64,000 bases of DNA from an uncultured Candidatus Micrarchaeota archaeon (GCA_963760615.1 CAVXDX010000012.1:3338-67337), one strand, 5' to 3'. Positions 6,566 to 42,848 are shown, counted from the stretch's first letter. Translations and numbers: made by a program. Notes: a model not told the origin generated them from the sequence alone.

Positions 6566-6638
6566 TGCGACCGCCGGGATTTGAACCCGGGTCGTTGGCT
6601 TGGAAGGCCAAAGTCCTACCAGGCTAGACTACGATCGC
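6566..6638 (-). tRNA. tRNA-Gly (anticodon UCC)
   Basis: Hand-folded cloverleaf on the reverse complement. Acceptor GCGATCG/CGGTCGC, anticodon stem TTGGC/GCCAA with loop CTTCCAA, and a GGTTCAAATCC T-arm. Confidence 0.8.
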
Positions 6639-6641
6639 AAG

Positions 6642-6791
<150 letters not shown>

Positions 6792-10302: not shown

Positions 10303-10359
10303 AGAGTAGCTTTTGATGCTACATTTTTATATTGCTTTTGAAAGGAAAAAAGAAAAAAA

Positions 10360-11694: not shown

Positions 11695-12115
11695 TCTCCT
11701 CGAAGTTGTACACCCCGAGCAGATACCTCAGTTTCCTCCTTACTTCAGTGTCAGGAAGCACATTGTATGAATACAACGCTTCCTCAACTCTCTTGCACAG
11801 CTTCTCTCCAGTCTCATCGAAATCGGTGAGAACCACCGCCTCGTCAGCAATTTTTGCAACTCTTTTGCACAACTCATCAGGGGTTAGGTTTATCAGGAAT
11901 ATCCTGTTCCTCACCCCTATGCGCTCAAGGGCTGCCTTGTCCCTCTTTCCCTCCACCAGTATCGGCTTTCCGCTTTCCTCCAGCTCCCTCAGAACCCTGC
12001 GGAGCAGCTTCTGCTTCCTCTGAAGCTTCCTCATCCTTAGAGGAGTGAATTTCTTCACTTTCATCACTTGCAACTTTGTAGGTGTAGAGAATAAGAGTAG
12101 AAGTGTACTGTGCAA
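11639..12115 (-). CDS. Small Toprim-domain protein (COG1658-like), immediately upstream of dnaG
   Basis: GKPILVEGKRDKAALERIGV...VVLTDFDETGEKL has the Toprim E...DxD pattern. The probable start is the internal MKVKKF. Confidence 0.55.
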   Translation of the reverse strand: MHSTLLLLFSTPTKLQVMKVKKFTPLRMRKLQRKQKLLRRVLRELEESGKPILVEGKRDKAALERIGVRNRIFLINLTPDELCKRVAKIADEAVVLTDFDETGEKLCKRVEEALYSYNVLPDTEVRRKLRYLLGVYNFEEIDRKLEEFKKKIEGDPNG

Positions 12116-12203
12116 TGTTGACCGAATTTCATTGATCGGCTTTCTCCATCAGCCATCCTTTGCACAGCAGTTATATTTTGAATAAACCCCTATATAAGCT
12201 TGA

Positions 12204-12749
12204 TTAAACTGACTCCTCCTCTACACACTCCTCGCAGGCAAGCTTGCCACCGCTCTTCTTCAGTGTCTCCGAATAGTTGCCGCATATCTCGCAGTTGCCC
12301 GACACAAATTCAGAAGCACCAAAATTTTCCAGCTCTGTTTTCTCGCGTATTATCTCGTAGAGCCCTGGCGATATCCTCACTATGTCCGTCTCTCCTATGA
12401 TGCCTATGAGTTTCCCCTTGTCATTAACCACAGGCAACCTCTTTATCCCCTCATCCCTGAGTATCTCTGCAACCTTCTCTATCATCTCATCAGGCCCTAC
12501 TGTCTTGAGTTTGGAGTGCATAATTTCCTTCATGAGAGTCTCCCTGGGGTCTCTCCCCTCTGCAACCACTTTATAGGTTATATCCCCCTCCGTCACTATT
12601 CCCACTAGAGCGTCATCCTTTAGTATTACTACGGAGCCTATCTTGTTTTCCCTCATAAGCTTCGCTGCTTCCATAGCTGTGTTCTCTTCCTTGAGGGTTA
12701 CAACCTCCCTCTTCATACAGTCTCCTACTCTTATTTCCTTTACCTTCAT
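12204..12749 (-). CDS. CBS-domain pair protein with a C-terminal zinc ribbon
   Basis: Two CBS repeats (VVTLKEENTAMEAAKLMRENKIGSVVIL...; ...KRLPVVNDKGKLIGIIGETDI) and a C-terminal CEICGN...CEEC cluster. Confidence 0.7.
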   Translation of the reverse strand: MKVKEIRVGDCMKREVVTLKEENTAMEAAKLMRENKIGSVVILKDDALVGIVTEGDITYKVVAEGRDPRETLMKEIMHSKLKTVGPDEMIEKVAEILRDEGIKRLPVVNDKGKLIGIIGETDIVRISPGLYEIIREKTELENFGASEFVSGNCEICGNYSETLKKSGGKLACEECVEEESV

Positions 12750-12806
12750 ACACTATGCTTTTGCACTAGTAATTTTATAAAACTTCGCCGAGCAGCTTAT
12801 AATGGT

Positions 12807-13196
12807 GTGGATTTGCTGAGGTATGCAAAGGGTGCACGGGGCGAGAGAGAGCTGATCAACATATTCCATGAGAATGGCTTCTCGGTGATACGGGCAGCCG
12901 GGAGCGGAGTCAGCTCCCTGTGCCCTGACATGCTTGTCTTCAGGAAGGGTTTGCAGTATGCATTCGAATGCAAGGCGTGGAACTCCGGAAGCTTGAGCAT
13001 AGAGAAGGAGAAGTTCAAAGCACTCAAGGAGTGGGAGGACAACACGGGCATAACCACATTCATTGCTTGGAGGATGAACAGGGTGGGCTGGAGGTTCATT
13101 TACCTCAGCGAGCTTGAGGAGAACCCGAGGAGCTACACTGTGACAAGGAGCAGGGCATTGGCAATAGGTAGGGTGCTTGACAAGCTTCTGGGATAG
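12807..13196 (+). CDS. hjc: Holliday junction resolvase Hjc
   Basis: GARGERELINIFHENGFSVIRAAGSG...DMLVF...ECK shows the Hjc nuclease-fold motifs (E, D, ExK) in a 129-aa protein. Confidence 0.8.
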   Translation: MDLLRYAKGARGERELINIFHENGFSVIRAAGSGVSSLCPDMLVFRKGLQYAFECKAWNSGSLSIEKEKFKALKEWEDNTGITTFIAWRMNRVGWRFIYLSELEENPRSYTVTRSRALAIGRVLDKLLG

Positions 13197-13235
13197 GTTT
13201 TTTAATGAAGATAGGCAATATGTAACAGGGGTTCA

Positions 13236-13622
13236 ATGAAGGAGCTTCTTGTACTGGCGAAGGACAGAATAGGGCTTCTGGCTGACTTATCCTACATACT
13301 GGGCCAAGCAGGCATCAACATAGAGTCTATCTCAGCTGATACTCTTGGAGACAAGGCTGTGATACACCTGATTGTTTCCGATGACAAGCAGGGGAAGGAA
13401 TTGCTGGAGAGGGGGGGCTTCATAGTGATGAGCTCGGATGCCATTGTCATAAAGGTGAAGGAGAGGCCTGGCGAGTTTTCAAGGGTCACCAGGGTGCTGG
13501 CAAACGCAAGGATAAACATAAAGAGCACTCAACTGCTCACAAAGGAGGGCGGACTTGCCTTATACACTCTGAGAGTTGATAATGTAAAGAAGGCAGCAGC
13601 CCTACTCAAGGACTATATGTGA
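13236..13622 (+). CDS. ACT-domain protein
   Basis: Two ACT-like segments (LAKDRIGLLADLSYILGQAGINIESISA, and a second around ERPGEFSRVTRVLANARINI). Confidence 0.55.
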   Translation: MKELLVLAKDRIGLLADLSYILGQAGINIESISADTLGDKAVIHLIVSDDKQGKELLERGGFIVMSSDAIVIKVKERPGEFSRVTRVLANARINIKSTQLLTKEGGLALYTLRVDNVKKAAALLKDYM

Positions 13623-13623
13623 T

Positions 13624-14100
13624 TTGATGAGAAAGCTCAAATCCTTCCGCTCTGAAAGCAGGAACTCGCTTCTTAATTGGCATAGAGTGAAGAACCCACT
13701 GAGAGTTTCTCTGAATTTTCTTCTAATATACACTGCAAGATACATGCCTTCACTCAGTGTGAAGAATTTCCTTTACAGGCTTACTGGGATGAAGGTTGGG
13801 AAGGATGTCGCTGTAGGGCTGGGGGCAGTTTTTGATATATTCTTCCCTGAGCTCATAGAGATTGGGGATAACTGCATAATAGGCTACGGGGTGACTGTGC
13901 TGGCACACGAGTTTCTCATCAAGGAGTGGAAGACTGGGAGGGTGAAGATAGGCAGGAATGTCCTCATAGGAGCTAACACAACGGTGCTTGCCGGGGTGAG
14001 CATAGGCGACAACTCAACAGTATCGGCATGCTCTCTGGTGAATGACAGTATACCGGCGGACTCCTTCTACGCAGGAGTCCCGGCAAAAAAGGTGAAGTGA
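13624..14100 (+). CDS. Hexapeptide-repeat (LbH) acyl/acetyltransferase
   Basis: Left-handed beta-helix hexapeptide repeats (IGDNCIIGYGVTVLAHE, IGRNVLIGANTTVLAGVSIGDNSTV). Confidence 0.6.
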   Translation: MMRKLKSFRSESRNSLLNWHRVKNPLRVSLNFLLIYTARYMPSLSVKNFLYRLTGMKVGKDVAVGLGAVFDIFFPELIEIGDNCIIGYGVTVLAHEFLIKEWKTGRVKIGRNVLIGANTTVLAGVSIGDNSTVSACSLVNDSIPADSFYAGVPAKKVK

Positions 14101-14783
14101 GTTTGATGAAGAGGAGTCTTCTTATCATCTCTTTGATAATACTCGTAGACTTGATAGGGATAGCCTATGGGTATTACTACTATGCAGAACAGCTGGGCTC
14201 ATCCCCTCTTTACCTCTGGCTGTTCATACCCGACTGCCCCTTCTATGTCATGGTGTTTACAATTGCACTACTGCTTGCAATCTTTGGATTTGAGAGCAGG
14301 CTCTTCAGCTACATAGCTGCAGTTGGTATGATGGAGTATGGCCTGTGGACTGCAACAGCGCTGGTGCTATTTGGGGATTATTTTTTCTCAAGTAAGCTCT
14401 GGCTGATGTCCTCCGTCCTCTTCATACTCCATATTGGAATGTTCGCGGAAGGCCCGCTGCTCATCCCTAAAAAAATTGGCAGAAGGCACCTGGGTGTAGG
14501 CTTGCTGTGGTTCTTCATAAACGATTACATTGACTACTTCTATGGCTACTTGAACACGGCAGGAGCGTATGTTCTAGGAACGCACCCAATTCTTCCTTCA
14601 GCTGACAGACTTCCTCTCATGATGGTTCTGACCTTCATTCTCACTATACTCTCTAGCTTCTTCGCCTACAGGTGGTCGCAGACCTCCGCAAGCTGGCCTG
14701 CGAGGAAAGAGCTAGAGGAAGTGGAGGGTTACTTTCAGACAGTAAGGAAAACAAGCAGGGGAAGGAGAAGCAGCAGGAAGTAA
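14097..14783 (+). CDS. Polytopic membrane protein of unknown function
   Basis: Several predicted TM helices and no catalytic motif recognised. Confidence 0.4.
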   Translation: MSLMKRSLLIISLIILVDLIGIAYGYYYYAEQLGSSPLYLWLFIPDCPFYVMVFTIALLLAIFGFESRLFSYIAAVGMMEYGLWTATALVLFGDYFFSSKLWLMSSVLFILHIGMFAEGPLLIPKKIGRRHLGVGLLWFFINDYIDYFYGYLNTAGAYVLGTHPILPSADRLPLMMVLTFILTILSSFFAYRWSQTSASWPARKELEEVEGYFQTVRKTSRGRRSSRK

Positions 14784-15415
14784 TCCGCAGGGCTGAATCT
14801 GATGTCGACTGCTACACCTATGTTTTCAGGGTCAAAGCCCCGCGACTCCAGCGATATGGCAAGCTCGCTGGCACGCTTCAGCGATGAGTGTAGGAGAGGC
14901 ACTAGGAGGGGAATGGGAAGTGAGAATGGGGCAAGCTCGTAGCCTCTCACGGCCTGGGATATCCTTATTCTGCCAAGCTTCTCCTGCATGATGGGGAGGA
15001 AGCGTATGGACACTGTGAGCATGAAGGCGAACTCGCTTGGCACCTTGAAGAAGACAAGCGCCTGCAGTATGGATTTGACTTCAGTTGTGTATATGCCTAG
15101 CATGGTGAGGAGTATTATGTTCAGCGTGAAGAGGGAGCCCATGATTCCAGAATACAGGCCATTTCGCGGGTTTATGAGCAGATTAAGGAAGATTGGCAGC
15201 ATGATGAAAAGCCAGCCCGCCCCCAGGTCGCGCAGAGGCTGGGTCAATTGTATGCGGCCCAGCGCATAGAGAAGCAGTGTGAGCAGTGAGCAGAGGATAA
15301 GCACTACGAGGTTCTGCCTTACTATGAGAAGGAGAAATAAGAAGAAGAGGTAGAGTATTTTCACCCTTGCATCAACGCTGTGTATCGGAGAGCTTTGGGG
15401 AATGAACGCTATCAT
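14735..15415 (-). CDS. ecfT: ECF transporter transmembrane (T) component (CbiQ/EcfT family)
   Basis: Polytopic CbiQ-like membrane protein, directly downstream of the ABC ATPase on the same strand. Confidence 0.65.
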   Translation of the reverse strand: MIAFIPQSSPIHSVDARVKILYLFFLFLLLIVRQNLVVLILCSLLTLLLYALGRIQLTQPLRDLGAGWLFIMLPIFLNLLINPRNGLYSGIMGSLFTLNIILLTMLGIYTTEVKSILQALVFFKVPSEFAFMLTVSIRFLPIMQEKLGRIRISQAVRGYELAPFSLPIPLLVPLLHSSLKRASELAISLESRGFDPENIGVAVDIRFSPADYFLLLLLPLLVFLTV

Positions 15416-16272
15416 TCACCCACCTGCAGAGGTTTTTTTAATTTTTTCCTAAGCGGATAGGGAACTTTCAGCCCGTAGCGCTCAATCTTTGGATTTGAGA
15501 GCACGCTCTTCGTAGGACCATCAAGCTCTATCCTGCCACCCTTCACAACCACAACTCTTTCTGCATTATTCAGCAGCATCTCCGTGTCATGCTCAACCAC
15601 AATTATCGTCCTCCCCATCCTGCTTAGGTTTCTCAGCATCCTATAAAGCTCATTAGCACTGCCAAAATCAAGGTTTGAGGAGGGTTCATCCAGCAGTATT
15701 ATCTCAGGCTCCATGGCAAGGGTTGAAGCAACGGTGAGCTTCTGCTTCTGGCCTTCTGATAGGTTGTTCGGGTTCTGGTCCTTCATAGACTCCAGCCCGA
15801 AGAGCCTGAGGTATTTCATAACCCTGGTCTCTATCTCTTCCTTGGGGAGCCTTCTGTTCTCAAGGGCAAATGCAACCTCGTCCCACAGCTTCAGCGAGAA
15901 TATCTGCGAGTTGGGGTCCTGCAGAACTATCCCTATGCCTTTTGAAAGCTCGCTCACGCTGGTTTTTCTGGTATCCCTGCCGCGCACGAGTACCTCACCC
16001 TCAAACTTTCCTTCTATGAGGTGCGGTATGACGCCGTTCATCGTGAAGAGCAGGGTGCTCTTGCCGCTTCCCACAGGCCCTATCACCCCAACAAATTCGC
16101 CCTTGCCAATTGAGAGGTTTAGATTCGACAGGACTTTCTTTTCCCCGTAGGAGAAGCTGAGGTTGCTTATCTGTATAAGCTCTACCATTTCATGTACCTC
16201 TCGATGAACCCAAACCTGAATGCCAGGGTCCATGCTACTGCAACTTCCATGAACCCCTGAAATGCATTCCAC
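15412..16272 (-). CDS. ecfA: ECF transporter ATPase (A) component, ABC ATPase; likely start MVELIQISNL near 16188
   Basis: Walker A GPVGSGKST, LSEGQKQK signature and ILLDEPSSNLD Walker B are all present. Confidence 0.85.
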   Translation of the reverse strand: MECISGVHGSCSSMDPGIQVWVHREVHEMVELIQISNLSFSYGEKKVLSNLNLSIGKGEFVGVIGPVGSGKSTLLFTMNGVIPHLIEGKFEGEVLVRGRDTRKTSVSELSKGIGIVLQDPNSQIFSLKLWDEVAFALENRRLPKEEIETRVMKYLRLFGLESMKDQNPNNLSEGQKQKLTVASTLAMEPEIILLDEPSSNLDFGSANELYRMLRNLSRMGRTIIVVEHDTEMLLNNAERVVVVKGGRIELDGPTKSVLSNPKIERYGLKVPYPLRKKLKKPLQVGE

Positions 16273-17018
16273 AAGAATATCAGGTACCAGGGAACTTCAT
16301 TCATAAAATCGCTGGGCGATATGCGGAAGAAAAGCGGCCCTGCGAAGTAGTAGTTTGAGATTATCATGGCTATGCCGCGGACGATGACGCTCAGGGACGT
16401 GACTATGAGCATTGCATCGGCATTGGAGAAAATGAGGGGACTTACATCCTTGGAGTACCTGCCCCAGAAGTGCAGCACAAGAAGCGAGAATACTGTTATT
16501 GTTGCAATTGGCAGTAAGCCAAGGAGCAGGTCCGATGCTCTGACATTTGTCTGAGTATTATTCAGGTAATTGACGCTGGGGACTGTGTACATTATATCCG
16601 AAGACGGCGGGACATAGGGCTGAGCAGCGAGGTTTGTGTTTATCGACAGGATGAAAAGCATCATGGAGATGAAAAGCGCGAAGAATACATTGATGAGAAG
16701 CTTGCCCAAATCGAAATTCTTCTTTATCGAGAGAAGGTAGAATGCGGGCACGAGGAACATTGGGACTGTAGCAGTGAACTTCATTATGGCGCCAATCCAC
16801 GAGGTGGGGGCAACGAGGGTTATGATGAGCGCGGTAAGGAGGGCTGTGTACATCGCCGCATCGAGCCCGAAGAGTAGGAAGCCAAGCAGAATGGGAACTC
16901 CCACAAGATCAACCGTCATCCCGAAGCCGCTGGGCACCCCTATAACTCCATTGGAAACCTGCAGAATTGCCGCCACGCACGAGAGCATTGCTACTGCGGT
17001 TAGTTTGTATGTTTTCAT
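16182..17018 (-). CDS. Membrane protein, putative ECF substrate-capture (S) component
   Basis: Polytopic membrane protein encoded first in an S-A-T gene order with ecfA and ecfT. At 278 aa it is larger than a typical S component. Confidence 0.35.
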   Translation of the reverse strand: MKTYKLTAVAMLSCVAAILQVSNGVIGVPSGFGMTVDLVGVPILLGFLLFGLDAAMYTALLTALIITLVAPTSWIGAIMKFTATVPMFLVPAFYLLSIKKNFDLGKLLINVFFALFISMMLFILSINTNLAAQPYVPPSSDIMYTVPSVNYLNNTQTNVRASDLLLGLLPIATITVFSLLVLHFWGRYSKDVSPLIFSNADAMLIVTSLSVIVRGIAMIISNYYFAGPLFFRISPSDFMNEVPWYLIFLWNAFQGFMEVAVAWTLAFRFGFIERYMKW

Positions 17019-17140: not shown

Positions 17141-17617
17141 ATGGGTATGAAAGGACAAAGCGGGGTAGAATACCTGACAATGTATGCCATGGCATTCATG
17201 ATTCTGCTAGTTGTCCTCGCAGGAATTTATTATGTGATGGTGTATTCCACTCCAGTAACTTCTCACTGTGATTTCCCACTGGATTTGCAATGCACTGACT
17301 ATTATATTAATTCTACGGGTAACCTCACCCTAATTATAAAGCAGGAAACGGGCCACCCCATAACAATAACCCAGTTCAACTGCACCAGCAATGACAACCT
17401 CGCTGGGATTACCTCGCCACTGCCAAACCCCGTGAATATCAACAGTGGCATGCAGGATTATTTGTCGAATGGAACCCCCTGCTACAGGCCAAACGGCGAT
17501 GTCGCAAAGGGACGCGTGGGCAGTTACTACACCGGAAAGCTTTTTGTTAAGTACAACGAGACAGACACTGGTTTTGTTCACGTGCTGACGGGAAACATAG
17601 TTGTTAAATATGAATAA
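17141..17617 (+). CDS. Archaeal type IV pilin-like protein (class III signal peptide)
   Basis: The N-terminus MGMKGQSGVEYLTMYAMAFMILLVVLAGIYYV gives a charged residue, Gly, then a hydrophobic helix (prepilin peptidase-type signal). The extracellular beta domain is shared with the neighbouring gene. Confidence 0.6.
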   Translation: MGMKGQSGVEYLTMYAMAFMILLVVLAGIYYVMVYSTPVTSHCDFPLDLQCTDYYINSTGNLTLIIKQETGHPITITQFNCTSNDNLAGITSPLPNPVNINSGMQDYLSNGTPCYRPNGDVAKGRVGSYYTGKLFVKYNETDTGFVHVLTGNIVVKYE

Positions 17618-17645
17618 ATTTATAAAGAGTCCTATGACAAATAGA

Positions 17646-18173
17646 ATGGTGAAGCGGATGAGAAAGGCACAGGCTGCAATGGAATACCTCATAACATATG
17701 GGTGGGCGGTGCTGGTAATGCTGATTGTTGTTGGAGTTCTCTTCTATCTAGGGATATTCAGCCCCCATACAATAATGACATGCACCTTCCAGAATCCGGG
17801 TTTCAGCTGCGCTGCATACAAGCTGACTTCGAATAGTGGGGGTGAAGGCGGCATCATACTTGACCTAGGCCAGTCTACTGGGCGTGACATAAAGGTTGTC
17901 GGTTTCAACTGCACAACCGCCAGCAGCTTCACAGTAATTGATTTTAATGGAGTGACTGCAAACAATGTGACCGTTCCCACTGGAGGTCATGCGCCCCTTA
18001 ATGGGACTGCTGCAGCCATGAAACCCCTTCCATGCTACAAGAACGATGGCAGTATGCTGGGAACTGCGGATGCAGGGAGTTATTACAAAGGGAAGCTCTA
18101 CATCCATTACTGGGATTTGGAGACCAACCTTGACCACAAGGTTACGGGCGACATAGCCGGAACCGTGGAATGA
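17646..18173 (+). CDS. Archaeal type IV pilin-like protein (class III signal peptide)
   Basis: MVKRMRKAQAAMEYLITYGWAVLVMLIVVGVLFYL is the classic KAQxAxEYLxTYGWAxL class III signal. The track ORF starts at 17601 but the signal begins at internal Met 17646. Confidence 0.65.
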   Translation: MVKRMRKAQAAMEYLITYGWAVLVMLIVVGVLFYLGIFSPHTIMTCTFQNPGFSCAAYKLTSNSGGEGGIILDLGQSTGRDIKVVGFNCTTASSFTVIDFNGVTANNVTVPTGGHAPLNGTAAAMKPLPCYKNDGSMLGTADAGSYYKGKLYIHYWDLETNLDHKVTGDIAGTVE

Positions 18174-19486: not shown

Positions 19487-22024
19487 TCAGCCTCCTTTCT
19501 TTATAATTGATTTACCTCTTGGTGTGAGTTTGTAGAACACCCACTTCCTACCATCAACTTCTATTTTCTCGACAAGGTCCGCCTCCCGCAGCTTGTCAAG
19601 ATGCTCCACTATTGTTGCTTTGCTCTTGTTGAGCTTTGAGCTTATGTCCGTCGGAGTCCTCTCCCCCTCAAGAAGAGTATTCAGAATCTCCATTCTCGTC
19701 CCTGATGATAGCGCGCGGTACACATCTGCATCACCAGGCTCCTTCTGGGCTGGGGCTCTCCTCAGCATACTCAGGACGACGAAAATGGTAAAAAGAACAA
19801 GAACTACTGCCACTGGTACTATTAAGTTTGAATTCGAAGGCTCGGTTCCAGTTGCTGGAGGTGACTGCTGGTTTGCGTTCTGAGGGGGTGTCTGACCGGT
19901 TGATGCGGGGGTGATTCTTACGACACCTCCCGCATTGCATAACAGCGCATTATCCCCAACAGAGAGGTAGTTTGCAGTTTTTTCATCGCTTATCAGGCTC
20001 AGGTATTCCTGCGAGCCGAACTGAACATTCCTCGTTGGCTCCATGCCATTGCATCCTGTGTCCTCCCATATGCCGCCGACAGAGACGAATGTTTTGTCAC
20101 CGATAACCTTTGTTTCCGGAGCCTGGGAAGTCTGCTCTGCCATGCTGCTTGTTGCCTTGTATGCATTTGCCACTCCGTAGGAACCACCAGCAACAGTTGC
20201 TGCCATTGGAGCTATATCCATATTTCTTCTTATCTCATTCCCCTCTGGTGATTTCACAAGGTAGGATGTGTAAGGGGTAGGTATTCCATATTTTACGGCA
20301 AGTTCAGTAACCTGCTGCTTGAGTTCTGGAGTCTCCCCATCCAGAGTTATCTGGTCAAGCAGATAGCCAACCTTCCTCAGAGCCCATGTTCTCTCCACGA
20401 AACTGTTTGATGAAGTCTGAGGGAAGCTTACATCGTACTTCAGCTCCTTCTGCACCCCACCTACGGAACCTTTCAGCCTGACAGTTGCGTCTCCATAGCC
20501 GCTGTATCTGCCAGCAACTACCAACTGTGTTCCAAGGAATATGTCCGGTATCCTCTTTGGGAGGAGATCATATGTCGAAACTGCACCTTCCACGCCAACG
20601 CATGCTGTGCTACCCATCTCGCATACTACCGGAGCTGAGGAGGGGGTTATGGTGAGCCGCACATCTGAAAGCACCGGAGTTGAAACTCTGTCATAGAAAG
20701 ACTTGAGTGTCATCTCCAAATCCGCTTCATTCTTTATGTATGTGGCTATTCCATCCCCGAATTCGTTTGAAAGCTTGTCGAGAAGCTCAAAATCTACGTC
20801 TTCGCCTACTCCAAACACGAAGAGTTTGAAATTCTTTCCACTTCCGTCTGCGCTGCCAGTCAGGGCCTTTAGTATATCTGTATTGGAGTGCCCCGTGGTG
20901 TCCCTGCCATCTGTGAGTATTATGACTAGGTGCATCCTGCTGTCGTTCTGGAACCATGCGATGGATTGCGCAAGAGGATCCTGTAGGTCTGTTGCGCCTT
21001 CCGCGGACATACCATCGACGAAATTCTTTGCGCCCTGGACTGAGCTTACACTCTGCAGGGTATCCGCATACCTCTTTGTAGTGCTTGAGAATGAGATTAT
21101 GTTGAACCTATCCTCTCCGTTCAGCCTGTCCAGCCCGTACTTGAGAGCACTTTTCACCTGGTCAAGCTTGGTGCCCTCCATGCTTCCGGAGGTGTCAATA
21201 ACGAAAACGACATCCTTCGGAATTGTTGTCTGGTTGACAATGGAGGGGTATATGAAAAGCAGGAAGTAGCCGCTCTCGTTGCTTTTTTGAGCCAGCAGCT
21301 TCACATCGTAATCCCTATTGCTTACACCATAGTAAAGCTGGAAGTCCTTATCCGGCAGTACTTTCTCCTCGTAGTAGGATACGACTGCCTTGCCGGTCTC
21401 TCCTCGCTGCACCGTTATGTTGTGCGTCGGCGAGTATATGAAACCCAAAGTGCCAGGTGCGTTTATGTTTATTGTTATATTCACCGGGTCTATAGGCTTT
21501 GTTGAATACCTCTCAGGGCTTAGGGGGTACATGTAGGTGTATAGCCCTGCGCTGGATGAGATTATCTGTTCGTAGGTTATCACGACCTTGACTGTTTTTC
21601 CTCTTGGGAGCACAATGCTTGAGGAGAAGGCATCCCTTCCGACATACTCCAAGAGAGATGCATCCCTCCTCTCAAGGACATACTGCTGGTAGGTTTTCTT
21701 TGCTTCCTCGCTTCCAAGAAGTGTTCCCTCAAGGGTTTTGCCATCAACTATAAGCTTGACATCCCTCACACCGCCTCCTGGGACTGGGAACATGTATACT
21801 CCTTCCAAATCCCTGTAACCGTCATTCCTGAACTCCTGCTCCACTCTTGTACGGGCGTACGTGTCATTTATTGTTACTGTAACATAGTGATTCAGTATGA
21901 GGGGGTACTGGTCCTCATGATGGATGGGTATGATCACTCCATCTGAATGAACGAAGCCTAGCAATAAGAAAAGCATCAGAATTGCAAACTTTGTCTTCAT
22001 TATATCACCAAGATAGTTAGGCAA
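19487..22024 (-). CDS. Signal peptide + VIT + von Willebrand A extracellular region, single TM helix, C-terminal cytoplasmic ArsR-like winged HTH
   Basis: Sec signal MKTKFAILMLFLLLGFVHS. VIT-like N-domain. vWA MIDAS motif DTSGSM...T...D. TM LIVPVAVVLVLFTIFVVLSMLRR. The wHTH is YRALSSGTRMEILNTLLEGERTPTDISSKLNKSKATIVEHLDKLREADLV. Confidence 0.6.
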   Translation of the reverse strand: MPNYLGDIMKTKFAILMLFLLLGFVHSDGVIIPIHHEDQYPLILNHYVTVTINDTYARTRVEQEFRNDGYRDLEGVYMFPVPGGGVRDVKLIVDGKTLEGTLLGSEEAKKTYQQYVLERRDASLLEYVGRDAFSSSIVLPRGKTVKVVITYEQIISSSAGLYTYMYPLSPERYSTKPIDPVNITININAPGTLGFIYSPTHNITVQRGETGKAVVSYYEEKVLPDKDFQLYYGVSNRDYDVKLLAQKSNESGYFLLFIYPSIVNQTTIPKDVVFVIDTSGSMEGTKLDQVKSALKYGLDRLNGEDRFNIISFSSTTKRYADTLQSVSSVQGAKNFVDGMSAEGATDLQDPLAQSIAWFQNDSRMHLVIILTDGRDTTGHSNTDILKALTGSADGSGKNFKLFVFGVGEDVDFELLDKLSNEFGDGIATYIKNEADLEMTLKSFYDRVSTPVLSDVRLTITPSSAPVVCEMGSTACVGVEGAVSTYDLLPKRIPDIFLGTQLVVAGRYSGYGDATVRLKGSVGGVQKELKYDVSFPQTSSNSFVERTWALRKVGYLLDQITLDGETPELKQQVTELAVKYGIPTPYTSYLVKSPEGNEIRRNMDIAPMAATVAGGSYGVANAYKATSSMAEQTSQAPETKVIGDKTFVSVGGIWEDTGCNGMEPTRNVQFGSQEYLSLISDEKTANYLSVGDNALLCNAGGVVRITPASTGQTPPQNANQQSPPATGTEPSNSNLIVPVAVVLVLFTIFVVLSMLRRAPAQKEPGDADVYRALSSGTRMEILNTLLEGERTPTDISSKLNKSKATIVEHLDKLREADLVEKIEVDGRKWVFYKLTPRGKSIIKKGG

Positions 22025-30237: not shown

Positions 30238-30479
30238 GAGTGATGAGCCGGCAGCTTTCCCGCAAGGGAGGAAGTTCCACCCATCGCGAAGGCTGAGGGA
30301 ACCTAAGGTTCGGACGGGAACAGAAACGAGACTGGCCGATTCAGATGAGGATGAAGCAATGAGATGGGTCGAGCCGGGTGAAACGCGCCCGTCGCAAAAG
30401 CAGGATGTGCGATGCAAGGCCTTTGAGCCGCTTAGTCCAATGCTGTCTAAAACAAAAGGTGGGCTATGGCTCGTCACTC
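30238..30479 (+). ncRNA. rnpB: RNase P RNA (compact, about 242 nt)
   Basis: P1 is 12 bp: GAGUGAUGAGCC pairs with GGCUCGUCACUC. P2 is GGCAGC/GCUGUC. P3 is a hairpin with a GCAA loop. CR-I is GGAGGAAGUUCCACCC (E. coli has GGAAAGUCCGGGC). CR-V is ACAAAAGGUGGGCUAUGG (E. coli has ACAGAACCCGGCUUAUCGG) with compensatory CCAC/GUGG in P4. A GGGUGAAAC (CR-II) segment and a GCAAGGCC (CR-III) segment are present. TATA atatttaaa sits about 28 nt upstream. Confidence 0.8.
30433..30479 (+). repeat. 47-bp perfect direct repeat, copy 1 (3' end of rnpB); att-like
   Basis: tagtccaatgctgtctaaaacaaaaggtgggctatggctcgtcactc is identical to 31673-31719. Degenerate similarity extends about 20 nt further 5'. Confidence 0.85.
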
Positions 30480-33903: not shown

Positions 33904-34027
33904 GCCAAGGTAGCTCAGCTTGGTTAGAGCACCAGACTCATAAGCTCAGCTTCATGAGTGATGAGCGCTATGCGCGATGATATGCTGCGTAATCTGGGTG
34001 TCGCGAGTTCAAATCTCGCCCTTGGCA
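33904..34027 (+). tRNA. tRNA-Met (anticodon CAU) with a 49-nt intron (33943-33991) at the canonical 37/38 position
   Basis: Acceptor GCCAAGG/CCTTGGC, D-arm GCTC...GAGC, anticodon stem CCAGA/TCTGG, loop CTCATAA, T-arm GCGAGTTCAAATCTCGC. Intron segment AUGAGU pairs with ACUCAU of the anticodon region (BHB-type helix). No CCA is encoded. Confidence 0.75.
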
Positions 34028-35269
34028 CTATTTCTTCTGTGAATGAGACTCCAGCCAGTCATTGAACTCCTTCTCCAAGTCCTCATGCACCTCTGGAGGA
34101 GCTGCTGGCGGCTGGGCTGGCGGGGCTGGAGGAGGCGGCTTGGGTGCTTCCTCCTTTCTGGGCTGCCTCTTTACAAACGGCAACGCAACAATAACCAACG
34201 CGACAATAACGAGCAGGACAACGAACGCGCCTCCAAGGACAAGGAGGGTGTTATCGCCTCCTGAAGAAGTCTGGTTTGAGGAGGAGTTCGTTGAATTATT
34301 TTTAACAGGTATGATGACTGATTTATTAGGTGCACTGACTGGGCACTTCCCAATGGAGTTCACCGATGAGTGTATTGAGCTGTTGGCATCTCTGAGCTTT
34401 GAGAATGCGACTGTATAGTCATCCGAAGCCAGAGCCTGCGCTGCCTCACTGACAGATTCATTGGCGCTGCTGAGCTGCGACTCTGAGAGGGTGACATTTG
34501 AGCCGCATTTCCTACCCTCTAGGATGACTTTCGCGACAGACGCAATTCTGAGCGCAGTGTCGTTTATGAGGGATACCACAGCGCTGCAGTTTTTCTTCAA
34601 CAGCATGAGAGACTCATTTGCAGCGTGAATTGAATTGGATGCGTCTATCATGTAACTCCATGAGGAGGAGAGCTGGCATTGCCTGAGGGAGGTATTCGCT
34701 GCGGAGAGGTTCTGCAATGCACTTCCAAGGTAACCCTTCACTGGAAGCATGCCGCAGCATGAGCTGCCGTAGCAAATTCCCCCAAGCGCATTGCTCACCT
34801 GTTTGAAACCATCTTCCGTGCTCTGCATTCTGGAGAGAACATTCATTTCATAGGGCGAGGTATGATAGCTCATAAAGATATCAAAAGATGTCGTGTAGTT
34901 ATAACCCCCATTACTGCCGATGACTATCACGTTTGTGGGTGAGGAGCCGTTCAGGCCTCCCATCATGGTGTATACCCTCAGCGTGCATGAAGCTGTGCTG
35001 GATGATGGCAGTACATTGTTGGTGCCTATGCACCTAATCAAGCCACCATCCCTGTAGAAGCCGATGCTAGGGTCGTACCACTCATAGGAGAGTGTGAGGG
35101 GGCGCGAGGAAGGATTTATGACTGCTATGCTGAATTCCACAGGATTGGGGTTGCCGTCTCCCCTGCAGTTGCAGCCGCTGAATGATACTGTGCCTGTCTG
35201 GTAGGCAATAAGCTGCTGCGCACTAGCCATGCCTATGAAAGCCAGCAGGATAATCAGCTTTAACTTCAT
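34028..35269 (-). CDS. Secreted/surface protein with a C-terminal TM anchor and a Pro-rich cytoplasmic tail
   Basis: Sec signal [19 protein letters not shown], many N-glycosylation sequons, a C-terminal TM helix, and a [14 protein letters not shown] tail. Confidence 0.45.
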
Positions 35270-35331
35270 CAGTTCACCACTATAAATTTTGGGCGGGAGA
35301 GTATTTAAGGTTTATTTTTCATATCACTAGC

Positions 35332-38493: not shown

Positions 38494-41400
38494 TTAGCAA
38501 GCACAGTATAAAGTACTACACGCGGTAACGCATTGGTAGTCGGTTCCCGTGTGGCAGAAGTTATCGCAGTTGCAACAGACCTGAGACCCAGGACAAGTAC
38601 CAGTTGGATGTGCGTTATCACAAGCGCCAGCTGCTGACTGACATGTTCCTCCGCTGCATGTACCTGATTGGCATACTCCAGGGCATAGGCATGCTTGCCC
38701 GTTTGCTAAAGAACCTGCGGTTATGCAGTATGAAGCACCTGTACCTCCTCCCTTGCACATATTGGCGCACTTATAGTTGTTGGTTGCGCCGCATGCTACT
38801 GCATTGCAACTGTTTGAACTGCAGGTACCACAGACTGCACAGGCAGCTGTTGATGAAACTGCAGTGCATGATGGGGTTGATGTGGTGGTAGTGCAGCCTA
38901 CTGTTGGGAAATAGTGGGTTGCGTCGCAGTTTGTGATTGGGTTGGATGAGCAGGTGGCGAGAGTGCCAAAGTAATAGCCGCAGAGACTGGGTGTATTTGC
39001 GTAGTATCCTTGGCATACGCCGGGGTTACCCGAACATGCTCCTGAAGTGCACATTCCAGCGCAGTAGCAGGTTGCTCCTGTTCCGCCTTTGGCTACGCAG
39101 TTTCCTCCACCTGTTCCTAGACCATTGCATACACTGGGACTAGTACAGCCATAGCCGTTTGTTGTACCGCATGATTTTGTACCGCAGGTATCACCAGTGC
39201 CGGTGCAGTCTCCGCATACCGCGCAATAGCCTGAAACACATGATAGCTGAGCGCCTAGTATGCAGGTTGGTTGTGATGCGCTGACTTTATAGCCTGATGC
39301 GCAGAATGCATTTGCGGGTCCGCATGAGGCAGAATTTCCATAGTAATAGCCGCAGAGATTTGGTAATGACTGGTAATAGCGTGAGCATTTATGGGTGGTG
39401 GTATTGCAGACCAGCCCACCTGTGCACATTTCAGGACAGTAACAGTCAGCTCCCTCAGTGCTGGATGGGGGTACGCAGTTTCCTCCACCTGTTCCTAGAC
39501 CATTGCATACACTGGGACTAGTACAGCCATAGCCGTTTGTTGTACCGCATGATTTTGTACCGCAGGTATCACCAGTGCCGGTGCAGTCTCCGCATACCGC
39601 GCAATAGCCTGAAACACATGATAGCTGAGCGCCTAGTATGCAGGTTGGTTGTGATGCGCTGACTTTATAGCCTGATGCGCAGAATGCATTTGCGGGTCCG
39701 CATGAGGCAGAATTTCCATAGTAATAGCCGCAGAGATTTGGTAATGACTGGTAATAGCGTGAGCATTTATGGGTGGTGGTATTGCAGACCAGCCCACCTG
39801 TGCACATTTCAGGACAGTAACAGTCAGCTCCCTCAGTGCTGGATGGGGGTACGCAGTTTCCTCCACCTGTTCCTAGACCATTGCATACACTGGGACTAGT
39901 ACAGCCATAGCCGTTTGTTGTACCGCATGATTTTGTACCGCAGGTATCACCAGTGCCGGTGCAGTCTCCGCATACCGCGCAATAGCCTGAAACACATGAT
40001 AGCTGAGCGCCTAGTATGCAGGTTGGTTGTGATGCGCTGACTTTCTTGCTTGCTGGACAACTTGTGATTGGGTTGGAGGAGCAGGTGGAAGAAGTTCCAT
40101 TGTAATAGGCGCAGAGATTTGGTAATGACTGGTAATAGCGTGAGCATTTATGGGTGGTGGTATTGCAGACCAGCCCACCTGTGCACATTTCAGGACAGTA
40201 ACAGTCAGCTCCTTCGATGCTGGATGGAGCAGCACAGTGGCTTGCTCCGGTTCCCACTCCATCGCAGACATTACCACTTGTTGAGCATCCATATGTAGTT
40301 CCACAAGCAGCAATCCCGCAGGTATCCGTCCCATCACCAACACAGTCTCCGCAAGTTGCACATGAACCAGATGAAGTTTCTGGCTGGCAGAATTTATAGC
40401 CTGATGATAAACAGTCTTGAATTGGGAAGTACTTTCCTGAACTGCAGTAGGTTGTAGTAAGTCCAGAACCGCATCCACCCGTTGTTGTTGACTGATAACC
40501 ACAGAGGTTGGTGGTGTTCCGGTAGAAGTAAGTTTGTGCTGTGCAGATACCACCCACGCATGTCGTTCCACCGGTGCAGACATTGCCGCAGTATCCGCAG
40601 TTGCTGTCGTTTGTATTCAGGTCAGGAACCTCGCATGCATCTGATGAATCATTATTGCAGTTTACAGAGGTGCCAGGGCAGTTAGTATAAATTCCGCCAG
40701 TGCAGTAGAACATATTTCCACAGTCATCTATTGATCCTGTGCAGCATTGAATCTGGTAGTTGATTCTGCCATCGCTGCCGCCTGTTGAGTTTGAGCATAT
40801 ACGGGTGCCTTTTGAGATTTTATCACATGCCGGCCAGAATGTTAGGGTATTGGGAGGACAGCCATTTTGACCTAAGCAGGATGCATTGCATATGCCGTTA
40901 AATGTGCAGGCTGCATTGCAGGCAGCAATGCATTGGCCTCCCTGACATGCAGTTCCCATCGGGCAGACATTGCCGCAGTGTCCGCAGTTGCTGTTGTTTG
41001 TAAGCAGATTCACCTCGCATGCATCTGATGAATTATAATTGCAGTTTGCAAACCCAATTGAACAACCAGTGCAACTGCCACTGCTGCAGTATGATGTGTT
41101 CCCGCAGCTTGTTATCGCCCCGTTGCAGCATGAAACATTGTAGTTGATTGTGCCTGTTGTTCCACCTGACGAGTCTGTACACAGTTGAACATTGGCACCA
41201 ACATTGCCATTGCAGGCTGGGAATATTGAGGAACAGCCGGAACAGGTTGCATTGCATTTGTTGTTAAATGTGCAGTCTGGCATGCATGTGTTGGTGCACG
41301 CAGCGCAGTCACTTGGGCAGTTGACGCAGCTTTCTCCATTCGCAGTATCGCAGTGGGTATCTCCGCACCAGCCAATTGTTGTTGATGTATCCTGATAACA

Positions 41401-42645
41401 CCTGTAACCTGGAGGTGCTGTGCCTCCTGTTGAATTTGGAAGGGACCTTGGCGCCCCGAGGCAGCATGTAACATAATAGTTGAGGAGAGGAGGAGTGCCT
41501 TCGGGTGCTGTGCCTCCTATTGAATTTGTGCATTTCTGGGAGTTTAGAGTATATGTATCGCAGACAGGCTGCGGGAACTGGTTCCACGCCCCGCAACCGG
41601 AAGAGCTGCAGGAAGAATTGCACGGCAGGTTGGGATTGCCAGTTACACCAAAAGTACAGTCTGAGAAGCAGTGCGGGATGCCAGTACACGGTGGGCAGTC
41701 AGCTGGGCAGTTGCTGCAGTTCTTTCCATGCACCTGGGCATTAGCACTGCAGTCGCCATCCCCGCAGTAGCCAATAGTTATTGGGGTGTTCTGGTTGTTC
41801 TGGTAGCAGTTTGTAGCATTGTTCAGTGCTCCATTGCAGCATTGAACATAGTAGTTCAACGCACCGGATATAGCCCCTGACGAGTCTGCGCACACCTGAG
41901 ATTTGTTAGAATTGCCATTGCAGGCTGTTTGGAAGCCTAAGCAACCATTAACCCCTATGCAGGATTGGTTGCATACACCATTAATTGAGCAGTCCGAAAG
42001 GCATACTGGACCGGCGCATGGACCGCAGTCAGCAGGACAGCTGCTGCATGTCTCCCCTGCTGTGCACACCCCATCCCCGCAATAGGATGGCGTGCCAGCT
42101 GGGCGCGCCTCAAAGGTGGCGGTGATTGCTCCATGGGAAGTCCTGTTCAACCCTCCAACGCAGCTGTTTGGGTAGTTTGGAGAAGTTTCGCAATCAACAT
42201 AGTTCAGAGCCACATCAAATTTGACATTCTTGTTTATTGATGGAATCACATCAGTGTCTGTTATATTGAAGGAGCAGTATACAGTGTCACCCTCCCTTAC
42301 GATGGTTCCAGTGCCCCAGCAGTATCCGGCGTAGCTGTTCGTTCCTGTCTTGCCGACATTTGTGACGTTTACTGTCTGGGTTCCATTGAAGGTTATTACC
42401 TTCCCCATGCCGTTGTTCAGCTGGAATACAAGCCTCATCCCTCCGCTGCTGTTTTTGAAGAACTTGAAGGTCTGGCAGGGCATACCAACCCCGAAGTTGC
42501 ACTGGGGCGCAGGCTGCTGCGAAGAGAGGTAGTAGAATGCCACAAAGGCTACGAGAAGAATAAGCAGGAAGGCCCAGCTGTAAGCGGTTATAAACTCAAT
42601 AGCCGACTGTGCCTTCTGGACCACCATAAAATAGGGTTTTGGCAA
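38494..42645 (-). CDS. Giant (1383 aa) cysteine-rich secreted protein with a class III signal peptide and internal perfect tandem repeats
   Basis: N-terminus MPKPYFMVVQKAQSAIEFITAYSWAFLLILLVAFVAFYYL. The protein is extremely rich in Cys/Gly/Thr/Ser/Asn with recurring CGDGxC...E..C..CP.DC modules. A 126-aa unit is repeated with 100% DNA identity. Confidence 0.7.
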   Translation of the reverse strand: MPKPYFMVVQKAQSAIEFITAYSWAFLLILLVAFVAFYYLSSQQPAPQCNFGVGMPCQTFKFFKNSSGGMRLVFQLNNGMGKVITFNGTQTVNVTNVGKTGTNSYAGYCWGTGTIVREGDTVYCSFNITDTDVIPSINKNVKFDVALNYVDCETSPNYPNSCVGGLNRTSHGAITATFEARPAGTPSYCGDGVCTAGETCSSCPADCGPCAGPVCLSDCSINGVCNQSCIGVNGCLGFQTACNGNSNKSQVCADSSGAISGALNYYVQCCNGALNNATNCYQNNQNTPITIGYCGDGDCSANAQVHGKNCSNCPADCPPCTGIPHCFSDCTFGVTGNPNLPCNSSCSSSGCGAWNQFPQPVCDTYTLNSQKCTNSIGGTAPEGTPPLLNYYVTCCLGAPRSLPNSTGGTAPPGYRCYQDTSTTIGWCGDTHCDTANGESCVNCPSDCAACTNTCMPDCTFNNKCNATCSGCSSIFPACNGNVGANVQLCTDSSGGTTGTINYNVSCCNGAITSCGNTSYCSSGSCTGCSIGFANCNYNSSDACEVNLLTNNSNCGHCGNVCPMGTACQGGQCIAACNAACTFNGICNASCLGQNGCPPNTLTFWPACDKISKGTRICSNSTGGSDGRINYQIQCCTGSIDDCGNMFYCTGGIYTNCPGTSVNCNNDSSDACEVPDLNTNDSNCGYCGNVCTGGTTCVGGICTAQTYFYRNTTNLCGYQSTTTGGCGSGLTTTYCSSGKYFPIQDCLSSGYKFCQPETSSGSCATCGDCVGDGTDTCGIAACGTTYGCSTSGNVCDGVGTGASHCAAPSSIEGADCYCPEMCTGGLVCNTTTHKCSRYYQSLPNLCAYYNGTSSTCSSNPITSCPASKKVSASQPTCILGAQLSCVSGYCAVCGDCTGTGDTCGTKSCGTTNGYGCTSPSVCNGLGTGGGNCVPPSSTEGADCYCPEMCTGGLVCNTTTHKCSRYYQSLPNLCGYYYGNSASCGPANAFCASGYKVSASQPTCILGAQLSCVSGYCAVCGDCTGTGDTCGTKSCGTTNGYGCTSPSVCNGLGTGGGNCVPPSSTEGADCYCPEMCTGGLVCNTTTHKCSRYYQSLPNLCGYYYGNSASCGPANAFCASGYKVSASQPTCILGAQLSCVSGYCAVCGDCTGTGDTCGTKSCGTTNGYGCTSPSVCNGLGTGGGNCVAKGGTGATCYCAGMCTSGACSGNPGVCQGYYANTPSLCGYYFGTLATCSSNPITNCDATHYFPTVGCTTTTSTPSCTAVSSTAACAVCGTCSSNSCNAVACGATNNYKCANMCKGGGTGASYCITAGSLANGQACLCPGVCQSGTCSGGTCQSAAGACDNAHPTGTCPGSQVCCNCDNFCHTGTDYQCVTACSTLYCAC
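39096..40040. repeat. Tandem 378-bp repeat (about 2.5 perfect copies) inside the giant Cys-rich gene
   Basis: Copies begin at 39096, 39474 and 39852 with identical sequence acgcagtttcctccacctgttcctagaccattgcatac... The third copy diverges at about 40040. The mirror-image duplicated antisense ORFs in the track confirm the 378-nt period. Confidence 0.9.
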
Positions 42646-42848
42646 GGGAATATATAAAACTATAGCTATTTCTCCCTCAAAACAACAAGGGGTATGACTC
42701 CCTTTTCAAACTCCATGTAGGCAATTTTAACTGGATTTATCAGCTTTTCAGGCAATTCTATGATTGGGGGTGCGCCTGATGCAAGCTGCAATGCTCGCGC
42801 ACCGATGACTCTTGCTTTCTCAAACCTGGTCAATTCCATTATATCACC

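Follow-up and report, generated by a model that had tools for sequence, protein, structure and literature searches.

Gene X, on the minus strand of a 64,000-nucleotide stretch of DNA from an uncultured Candidatus Micrarchaeota archaeon (the window), probably encodes a pilin-anchored, fast-evolving modular type IV pilin-like surface adhesin of this tiny symbiotic DPANN archaeon, held together by what we assume to be disulfide staples. A minor-pilin or adhesin role, suggested by a sequence-only reading of the window, remains the best candidate reading, and by analogy X appears to be the archaeal counterpart of the bacterial modular pilins. Our analysis shows sequence features, homologies, two predicted folds, sharing of modules among proteins, and hypervariability of the locus relative to its flanks; the pilin-like front, joined to a strain-variable, recently duplicated Cys-rich tail, makes X a candidate attachment protein. 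The features, in window positions, are as follows.

42651–42658, minus strand: TATA-box-like TTTATATA, ~27 nt upstream of the ATG (read from the sequence)
38494–42627, minus strand: X coding sequence, 1377 aa plus stop (ATG start; P0001 match; orthologue starts)
42610–42627, minus strand: class III-type leader MVVQKA (motif scan; 30-homologue alignment; predicted cleavage)
42526–42609, minus strand: hydrophobic N-terminal alpha-helix, residues 13–40 in 1383-aa numbering (AF2; hydropathy scan)
42085–42525, minus strand: globular beta-sandwich of the pilin-like N-module, six conserved Cys
40537–42084, minus strand: proximal Cys-rich stalk, residues 188–703 (module comparison)
38635–40536, minus strand: five "R" domains, residues 704–1337, 124–134 aa and 18 Cys each (protein-level array)
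39094–40044, minus strand: perfect tandem repeat, 2.52 × 378 bp at 100% identity, spanning the latter part of R1, the whole of R2 and most of R3
38497–38634, minus strand: C-terminal Cys-rich tail, 46 aa, 10 Cys
17141–17617, plus strand: small pilin-like gene, 158 aa, MKG/QSGVEYL (X-type N-terminal motif and first Cys pair, E 1e-11)
17601–18173, plus strand: second small pilin-like gene, ...RKA/QAAMEYL, likely start ATG 17658 (homology to X, E 2e-12)

The open reading frame at 38494–42645 (minus strand) comprises 1383 codons when read from a TTG at 42645. The frame reported earlier is thus real, although its start is more likely the ATG at 42627, since the resulting 1377-aa protein equals database entry P0001 (100% identity) and M-K-A-Q is the N terminus of X orthologues. 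The rpoK stop codon lies at 42666–42668, and the position of the TTTATATA box suggests that X is transcribed from a promoter of its own, as a leaderless or near-leaderless mRNA. The whole protein has a mass of 139 kDa, not the megadalton scale first proposed for its ectodomain, and its Cys residues, described as hundreds, number 183 (13.2%) in a Gly/Ser/Thr/Asn-rich composition. N-glycosylation sequons are unenriched in X (25 observed vs. 23.3 ± 4.0 in shuffles). Neither the full-length protein nor its segments gave a significant match in Pfam or NCBIfam, and every part of X lies outside the curated families. Word-indexed homologue searches were nearly blind to this composition (2–3 matches); an exhaustive HMMER search found the relatives, and X is not an orphan, with dozens of relatives each for its N-module and its repeat in Micrarchaeota metagenomes.

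The N terminus bears out the proposed prepilin-type (class III) signal through its motif, its conservation in 30 homologues, the predicted helix and beta-sandwich, and the homology to the two small genes in the window. In the 30-homologue alignment the motif [KR][AG]/Q..[IVL]E has invariant Q+1 and E+5 and nearly invariant K/R-A/G, and the predicted cut after the Ala of MVVQKA would leave the mature N terminus QSAIEF (Gln+1, Glu+5). Glu+5 is tied to subunit–subunit contacts in type IV filaments. The same signature, Gln+1 and Glu+5 after a short leader, marks the Epd/EppA type and occurs in EppA-processed Methanococcus pilins (PMC3875500). AF2 places a helix at residues 4–36 of the N-module with pLDDT above 89, and in the hydropathy scan this N-terminal helix is the sole hydrophobic segment of X. 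The ensuing beta-sandwich is predicted to be Ig-like (~140 aa, three Cys pairs), with a weak resemblance to archaeal pilins and archaellins, and a conserved CGDGxC linker follows the module in the homologue alignment. Pfam PF04021 (Class_IIIsignal/DUF361) and the NCBIfam pilin models matched neither X, its N-module, the 30 homologues nor the small pilin-like genes; Pfam and NCBIfam likewise gave no match in X to the bacterial prepilin-type N-terminal cleavage/methylation motif (IPR012902), and PDB sequence-profile searches with the N-module and R returned noise only. By sequence comparison, the first 180 aa of X are an unannotated Micrarchaeota family, whose members also stand alone as proteins of ~150–190 aa or head proteins of 300–1664 aa with Big_1/Invasin_D3 (Ig-like), NosD/beta-helix or Cys-rich cargo.

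The cargo is a mosaic of Cys-rich modules. In the stalk, three CGDGxC..CPxDC linkers are each followed by an "A" module, and then come B (Stig1-like), A and B. The CGDGxC...CPxDC motif, earlier thought to recur throughout the protein, occurs only at residues 189, 294 and 427, the remainder consisting of other Cys-rich modules. The two B modules follow the pattern NC..SSDACEV.L.TN.SNCG.CGN.C..G..C.GG.C and score 16.5 and 19.1 bits against Stig1 (PF04885), below the Pfam gathering threshold of 24.1 bits; relatives found through the Stig1 motif pass this threshold, P0017 with 70 bits and P0027 with 149 bits among them. The outer R units are 36–57% identical to the central one, and all share a conserved, even number of 18 Cys and a CxxCxxC(x6)C motif, with CAVCGDC...C conserved in the R alignment. 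AF2 confidently predicts a compact beta-rich fold for the R unit, without cofactors. The 126-aa unit has no significant sequence or fold match to any characterized family and no PDB analogue, and a search for strong homology to S-layer or dockerin modules found none, in line with the initial view. No C-terminal membrane anchor is present in X. Proteins with Sec signals or C-terminal anchors likewise contain R, A and B modules, which indicates that these modules are extracellular.

The exact repeat lies within the R array: bases 39094–39666 are identical, base for base, to 39472–40044, giving an array of 951 bp whose exact periodicity cannot be chance, and TRF reports 39094–40227 with a period of 378, 3.0 copies and a score of 2066. 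The identical 378-bp units described by the sequence-only reading are thereby confirmed as 2.52 units in the assembled sequence, their coordinates off by only 2 nt, and the very recent expansion read into them is plausible, because unit identity within the other proteins of the family is only 42–74%. The same contrast, a ceiling of 74% for unit identity inside any other family member, could also mean that assembly produced part of the repeat: the gene and its R domains would be real, but the assembler would have guessed the number of exact 378-bp units, adding two loop traversals, and the true number would be smaller or larger. A 951-bp stretch periodic at 378 bp would form a cycle in any short-read graph, in which coverage heuristics would set the copy number; moreover, the X allele has no second assembly, the P0001 cluster has one member, and an exact 69-mer of the repeat finds zero matches in JGI metagenomes. 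We nevertheless judge an assembly origin unlikely: the frame is kept and the domain boundaries are intact (378 = 3 × 126), the divergent flanks at the 5′ side of R1 and the 3′ side of R3 would fit unequal crossing-over in a 195-bp shared core, and near-identical adjacent segments occur in the independently assembled alleles P0002, P0004 and P0009. The exact 951-bp repeat also marks a site at which short-read MAGs are unreliable.

X occupies a conserved site, GGR-rpoK-X-PAP2-DHOase, in a housekeeping locus. The flanking proteins are 76–94% identical between genomes, whereas the N-module is 57–86% identical and the cargo cannot be aligned; the alleles are 1377, 990, 656, 623 and 621 aa long, with modules shuffled. 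These data show wholesale allele and module variation, as distinct from copy-number variation of the exact repeat, at a locus that is hypervariable against its conserved flanks. Close relatives come from MAGs of anoxic lake sediment.

In the 64-kb window, tblastn with T2SSE, T2SSF, LamG and minor-pilin sequences of a relative and motif scans for an A24 peptidase revealed no gene for a prepilin peptidase, an ATPase or a platform protein. On the contig of one close relative, the X homologue lies 4–8 kb from T2SSE and two T2SSF genes, together with pilin-like genes, and this set matches archaeal TFF "system 1", which has been reported for DPANN (bioRxiv 10.64898/2026.04.22.720090). Among 37 loci examined, this is the only contig that links an N-module homologue to TFF machinery. 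The adjacency adjoins a truncated gene remnant and is absent from a sister contig with the same allele; the arrangement does not, then, represent a conserved operon and may reflect a chimeric assembly, and with one supporting contig among the 37 loci we dropped the argument that X is a member of a pilus operon.

The architecture of X is a broadly known design, a pilin module with grafted cargo. The modular type IV pilins of bacteria (such as PilB and PilC of Streptococcus sanguinis; CofB, TcpB; PMC8179133) and X share an N-terminal pilin module, a short linker and extra functional modules, and in both the cargo varies on a common carrier, with the tip as its likely place; in X, as in this design, the N-module and short linker precede domains that also occur independently. 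X differs in its archaeal Q+1/E+5 Epd-type leader in place of the IPR012902 motif, its Ig-like beta-sandwich carrier, its Cys-rich modules without a database signature, and a cargo of ~1190 aa (up to ~1450 aa in paralogues) compared with a total of 860 aa in the extreme bacterial example cited (PMC8179133). As judged by these features, X would function in the manner of a modular pilin, yet lies outside the published IPR012902-defined set. The initial view that X belongs to no described family agrees with the absence of curated matches, and it has to be qualified on two points: the modular-pilin architecture is known (PMC8179133), and large archaeal class III-signal adhesins have been predicted (PMC4858521).

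The Epd pilins and EppA substrates of Methanococcus maripaludis (DUF361, PF04021) share with X a short leader with a small final residue, Gln+1, Glu+5 and a hydrophobic helix, and their machinery, one ATPase and two platform genes, has the composition seen in the relative's cluster. X, however, lacks a DUF361 match, has a leader type in which Ala is usually the last residue, in place of Gly, and carries its own ~140-aa beta-sandwich, which contains three Cys pairs. Most Epd pilins measure 67–76 aa, and even the three "much larger" ones have no giant cargo (PMC3875500). Surveys of archaeal T4P loci have predicted large adhesins that carry class III signals or are PilY-like (PMC4858521; bioRxiv 10.64898/2026.04.22.720090). 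Like X, these are large secreted or pilin-like proteins proposed as adhesins, many components being rich in conserved Cys, but they bear DUF2341/LamG or Ig-fold domains and sit inside T4P loci, whereas X has none of those domains and its site is a housekeeping locus; Micrarchaeota are absent from the text of both surveys. Stig1-like motifs (PF04885) and CGDGxC..GE..CP.DC linkers are widespread in bacterial and archaeal surface proteins, and the B modules and three linkers of X are of these types; they make up only ~15% of X, fall below the Pfam cut-off, and do not include the R domain or the A module. Giardia VSPs offer an analogy only, a Cys-rich, repeat-bearing ectodomain with strong strain differences; they have no sequence relationship to X, no Pfam match in it, another mode of anchoring, and X shows no sign of switching. 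A 2026 preprint on Cys-rich repeats and HGT proved unrelated to X.

We propose that X consists of a carrier (class III leader, hydrophobic helix and beta-sandwich) onto which ~1190 aa of putatively disulfide-stapled cargo has been grafted. Sec would insert the protein, and an EppA/PibD-type prepilin peptidase would remove MVVQKA; the N-terminal helix would keep X in the membrane, and a TFF machine of one ATPase and two platform proteins, the set present in a close relative, would load it into a pilus. By analogy with the bacterial modular pilins, the bulky cargo makes the pilus tip its most probable position. The cargo may form an acid- and protease-resistant stalk ending in the five R domains, which could serve as an adhesive or recognition surface toward a substrate or a host cell. 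Length and specificity would be altered by module shuffling and by R units recombining unequally, processes in part shown by the present data, and the exact 378-bp repeat would be the latest such event. A point against this scheme is that, to our knowledge, no archaeal pilin with a cargo of >1000 aa has been demonstrated in a filament.

The modular-pilin reading is favored by the Epd/EppA-type leader with its invariant Q+1 and E+5, the occurrence of the N-module alone or with varied cargo, the two small paralogues in the window, the sole N-terminal anchor, the even and conserved Cys number per R, the extracellular modules, the variability of the locus, the TFF genes of the relative, and the pili-like structures through which ARMAN/Micrarchaeota cells touch their hosts (PMC5864196). 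It is weakened by the lack of machinery in the window, the unconserved adjacency to the pilus cluster and the missing Class_IIIsignal/DUF361 match, and by the fact that the disulfides are assumed while relatives come from anoxic sediments. A rival reading is a surface coat or spacer that is anchored in the membrane and never polymerized, its class III-type N terminus serving export and anchoring only, as in the sugar-binding proteins of the Sulfolobus bindosome or in a short pseudopilus, and its Cys-rich rod projecting from the cell as part of the envelope. The single N-terminal helix could be such an anchor, five of the six contigs with this synteny show no pilus machinery linked to the conserved site, the cargo far exceeds that of known filament-borne pilins (bacterial extreme cited, 860 aa; PMC8179133), and class III signals with a non-pilus use are known from the bindosome (PMC4858521). 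We consider this rather unlikely, given that stand-alone, pilin-sized N-modules would be functionless as mere anchors and that the window holds small pilin-like paralogues. The invariance of Glu+5, a residue tied to filament subunit contacts, argues in the same direction.

Quite improbable is a metal-binding or redox protein in which the Cys (13%), including the CxxCxxC(x6)C of each R unit, coordinate metals or clusters in the manner of metallothioneins or ferredoxins instead of forming disulfides. The high Cys content, the conserved CAVCGDC...C motif, a weak Metallothi_Euk2 match (E 0.18) and the anoxic lake sediment of the relatives, where extracellular disulfide formation is less obvious, point toward such a function. 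Against it stand the export signal, modules common to Sec-secreted proteins, the even, invariant Cys number and confidently predicted cofactor-free fold of R, and a Gly/Ser/Thr/Asn-rich composition typical of extracellular stalks; there is no Fer4 match, and no metallothionein family reaches significance.

The analysis defines two unannotated protein families, the pilin N-module of Micrarchaeota and the R domain with its 18 Cys, which has no PDB analogue. On the modular-pilin reading, the "modular pilin" principle known from bacteria would also hold in archaea, in a protein roughly twice as large as the biggest bacterial case cited. For the question of how DPANN archaea find their hosts and stay attached to them, the X locus offers a concrete, testable candidate: a pilin-type carrier with a putatively exposed, strain-variable, putatively disulfide-rich head. 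More tentatively, Micrarchaeota may use lineage-specific modular type IV pilins as host-recognition determinants, with a conserved N-module and interchangeable tip cargo that includes the hitherto unseen 18-Cys R fold as well as giant arrays of up to 1.6 kaa, and the rpoK-adjacent locus may be a hotspot of strain-level diversification at which unequal recombination, exemplified by the exact 378-bp repeat, and module swaps retune interactions with hosts or viruses. If this is true, the pili-like connections between ARMAN cells and their hosts would gain a molecular candidate.

The cysteine-rich, pilin-like protein X is encoded on the minus strand by an open reading frame at 38494..42645, which comprises 1383 codons when counted from a TTG. 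On either side of that TTG lie a TTTATATA box (42651-42658) and an ATG in the same frame (42627); rpoK (42666-42839), the gene before X, stops 39 nt upstream of this ATG. Because the database copy P0001 (1377 aa, 100% identical to X) begins at 42627, and the closest orthologues start with M-K-A-Q at their N terminus, we take 42627 as the start; the anatomy below is given in 1383-aa numbering.

Layout of X (minus strand, residues)
7-12: leader MVVQKA
13-40: hydrophobic helix
41-187: globular domain
188-703: three CGDGxC..CPxDC linkers (Lk), an A module after each, then B-A-B
704-1337: R units (five), each 124-134 aa long and containing 18 Cys
1338-1383: tail with 10 Cys

X has a mass of 139 kDa and a pI of 4.8, with a single hydrophobic segment, at the N terminus, and is rich in Cys (183 residues, 13.2%), Gly (13.6%), Thr (11.3%), Ser (10.1%), and Asn (8.2%). 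The sequence-only reading thus overstated both its size ("megadalton") and its cysteine content ("hundreds"), and the CGDG module that it placed throughout the protein is confined to the three linkers within residues 188-703. The B module is a Stig1-like motif whose Pfam score in X is sub-threshold. The exact tandem repeat (2.52 copies of a 378-bp unit, 951 bp in all; TRF score 2066) spans the latter part of R1, the whole of R2, and most of R3; DNA 39094-39666 and 39472-40044 are identical at every base, which bears out the repeat coordinates and the 100% identity reported earlier, while R0 and R4 are 57% and 36% identical to R2, respectively. A 573-bp exact match at a 378-bp offset is what would be expected from one unequal crossover in a 195-bp shared core, and two rounds of duplication would fit it as well. 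It is possible, if unlikely, that the copy number of this perfectly repeated unit was set by the assembler, a reading that concerns the repeat only. Every R unit (38635-40536, minus strand) conserves a CxxCxxC(x6)C motif (CAVCGDCTGTGDTC) that superficially resembles an Fe-S cluster-binding motif; no Fer4 model matched it, and we consider it very improbable that X is a metal-binding protein.

The N-terminal carrier of X (the N-module: leader, helix, and beta-sandwich) was modeled with a pLDDT of 88.5 using 30 homologues, which gave residues 4-36 as a helix and, after it, a beta-sandwich of eight strands. The best Foldseek match to this model is an archaellin (E 1e-3) with low TM-scores; the model would suit a subunit of an archaeal type IV filament but does not prove one. 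The leader ends in [KR][AG] in a 30-sequence alignment that shows no variation at Gln+1, at Glu+5, or at five Cys positions, with a sixth Cys present in at least 90% of sequences. The Micrarchaeota N-module has this signature in common with the EppA-processed Epd pilins of M. maripaludis, which have 5-13-aa leaders with conserved Gln+1 and Glu+5 (PMC3875500). Two small genes in the window form a tandem pair paralogous to the N-module.

Small pilin-like genes
17141-17617, plus strand: leader MKG/QSGVEYL; X motif present; aligns with X past the helix, E 1e-11
17601-18173, plus strand: leader RKA/QAAMEYL; X motif present; aligns with X past the helix, E 2e-12

Neither has a Pfam match, and no pilus assembly genes adjoin them.

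Searched exhaustively with HMMER, 1.84 billion representatives yielded 801 matches to X, which fall into three independent classes; every named relative belongs to a Candidatus Micrarchaeota MAG and bears the annotation "hypothetical." The N-terminal 200 aa (class i) stand at the head of ~35 representative proteins, which measure 116-1664 aa and in which a conserved CGDGxC linker separates the N-module from a variable cargo consisting of Big_1/Invasin_D3 Ig-like domains with NosD/right-handed beta-helix, of Cys-rich modules, or of nothing, many stand-alone N-module proteins being 147-188 aa long. Ca. Micrarchaeum harzensis A_DKE also encodes N-module homologues (locus L016). Besides X, 13 of the proteins retrieved (11 representatives and two cluster members of the homologue P0003) contain the R unit (class ii) in one to three copies, and they are anchored in different ways: by a Sec signal, a different class III-like leader, or a TM helix at the C terminus. 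Stig1-like repeat proteins matched by the B motif (class iii) number in the hundreds. No Pfam or NCBIfam model and no PDB sequence matched the N-module or R.

X lies within a conserved block in which CEP76-like peptidase, Fer4, geranylgeranyl reductase, and rpoK precede it, and genes for a 186-aa membrane protein, PAP2, dihydroorotase, and PPS follow convergently; this block recurs in five other contigs. Across four alleles compared, the flanking proteins are 76-94% identical and the N-module only 57-86%, with a similarity ranking unlike the one that the flanks give; the cargo cannot be aligned.

Architectures of X alleles
Window allele (X): N-[Lk-A]x3-B-A-B-Rx5
P0002: N-[Lk-A]x3-A-[Lk-A], then other Cys repeats
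P0003: N-..-B-Rx2
P0004: N-..-Bx3

A fifth allele, P0151 (623 aa), shares a 90%-identity cluster with P0003, and a sixth contig (L026) stops inside the gene; allele lengths are 1377, 990, 656, 623, and 621 aa. MAG Sv174 (GCA_013425335.1) carries the ~9-gene block on two contigs, L001 and L024, with flanking proteins 87-94% identical and different X alleles (990 and 656 aa), and so this bin seems to hold two strains. Since the alleles differ in length and module order within conserved flanks, X is a fast-evolving, module-shuffling surface gene amid housekeeping genes. The same block retains, at only 49-66% identity, a 427-aa protein (34028-35311, minus strand) that is secreted or anchored (signal peptide and hydrophobic C-terminal stretch) and has no significant Pfam family; it is another fast-evolving surface gene close to X.

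Other features of the window are as follows.

6565-6791, minus strand: tRNA genes Gly-TCC, Gly-GCC, and Phe-GAA, spaced just 2 nt each
19487-22024, minus strand: 845-aa protein with signal peptide, VIT and VWA, TM helix, and C-terminal ArsR-type winged HTH (Pfam), an unusual one-component architecture joining an extracellular VWA sensor to a cytoplasmic DNA-binding domain
30238-30479, plus strand: archaeal RNase P RNA; its 242 nt for a 288-position model and score barely above gathering (86.3 vs. 84) suggest a reduced form; its archaeal type marks the source organism as an archaeon
33904-34027, plus strand: 124-nt Rfam tRNA match (57.6 bits), missed by ARAGORN, probably an intron-containing archaeal tRNA

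No pilus machinery genes were found within the 64-kb window. In a relative, on contig JAPLWT010000035 (L023/L002), a complete pilus cluster (9335-16583) comes after X: three small pilin-like ORFs, a Laminin_G_3 protein of 705 aa, two T2SSF genes, and one T2SSE gene. This arrangement is the "system 1" layout, in which the platform gene is split, as reported from methanogens and DPANN (bioRxiv 10.64898/2026.04.22.720090). A 24-aa remnant (9165-9236) of the conserved 186-aa gene contains the junction, and L025, a sister contig carrying this X allele, retains the ordinary neighbors; thus, the linkage is not conserved and may be chimeric. The contig is either truly rearranged or chimeric, and the cluster indicates no more than that this lineage possesses machinery of this kind. 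X could alternatively be a membrane-anchored envelope protein that never polymerizes, held by its one hydrophobic segment; we regard this as the less probable reading, though a serious one.

We somewhat favor X as an archaeal analogue of the modular pilins described in bacteria (PMC8179133), which it resembles in placing cargo on an N-terminal pilin carrier, and as a putative adhesin. A class III peptidase would process the carrier, and the processed protein would load into a type IV filament or at its tip, displaying a long disulfide-stapled stalk with terminal R domains as adhesin. This design principle is already known from bacterial modular pilins and from the large class III adhesins predicted in archaea (PMC4858521); new here are a carrier family specific to Micrarchaeota, cargo of this size, an R domain without precedent in structure or sequence, and a locus demonstrated to be hypervariable. 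Because ARMAN/Micrarchaeota touch their hosts via pili-like structures (PMC5864196), host attachment is the most attractive role for X.
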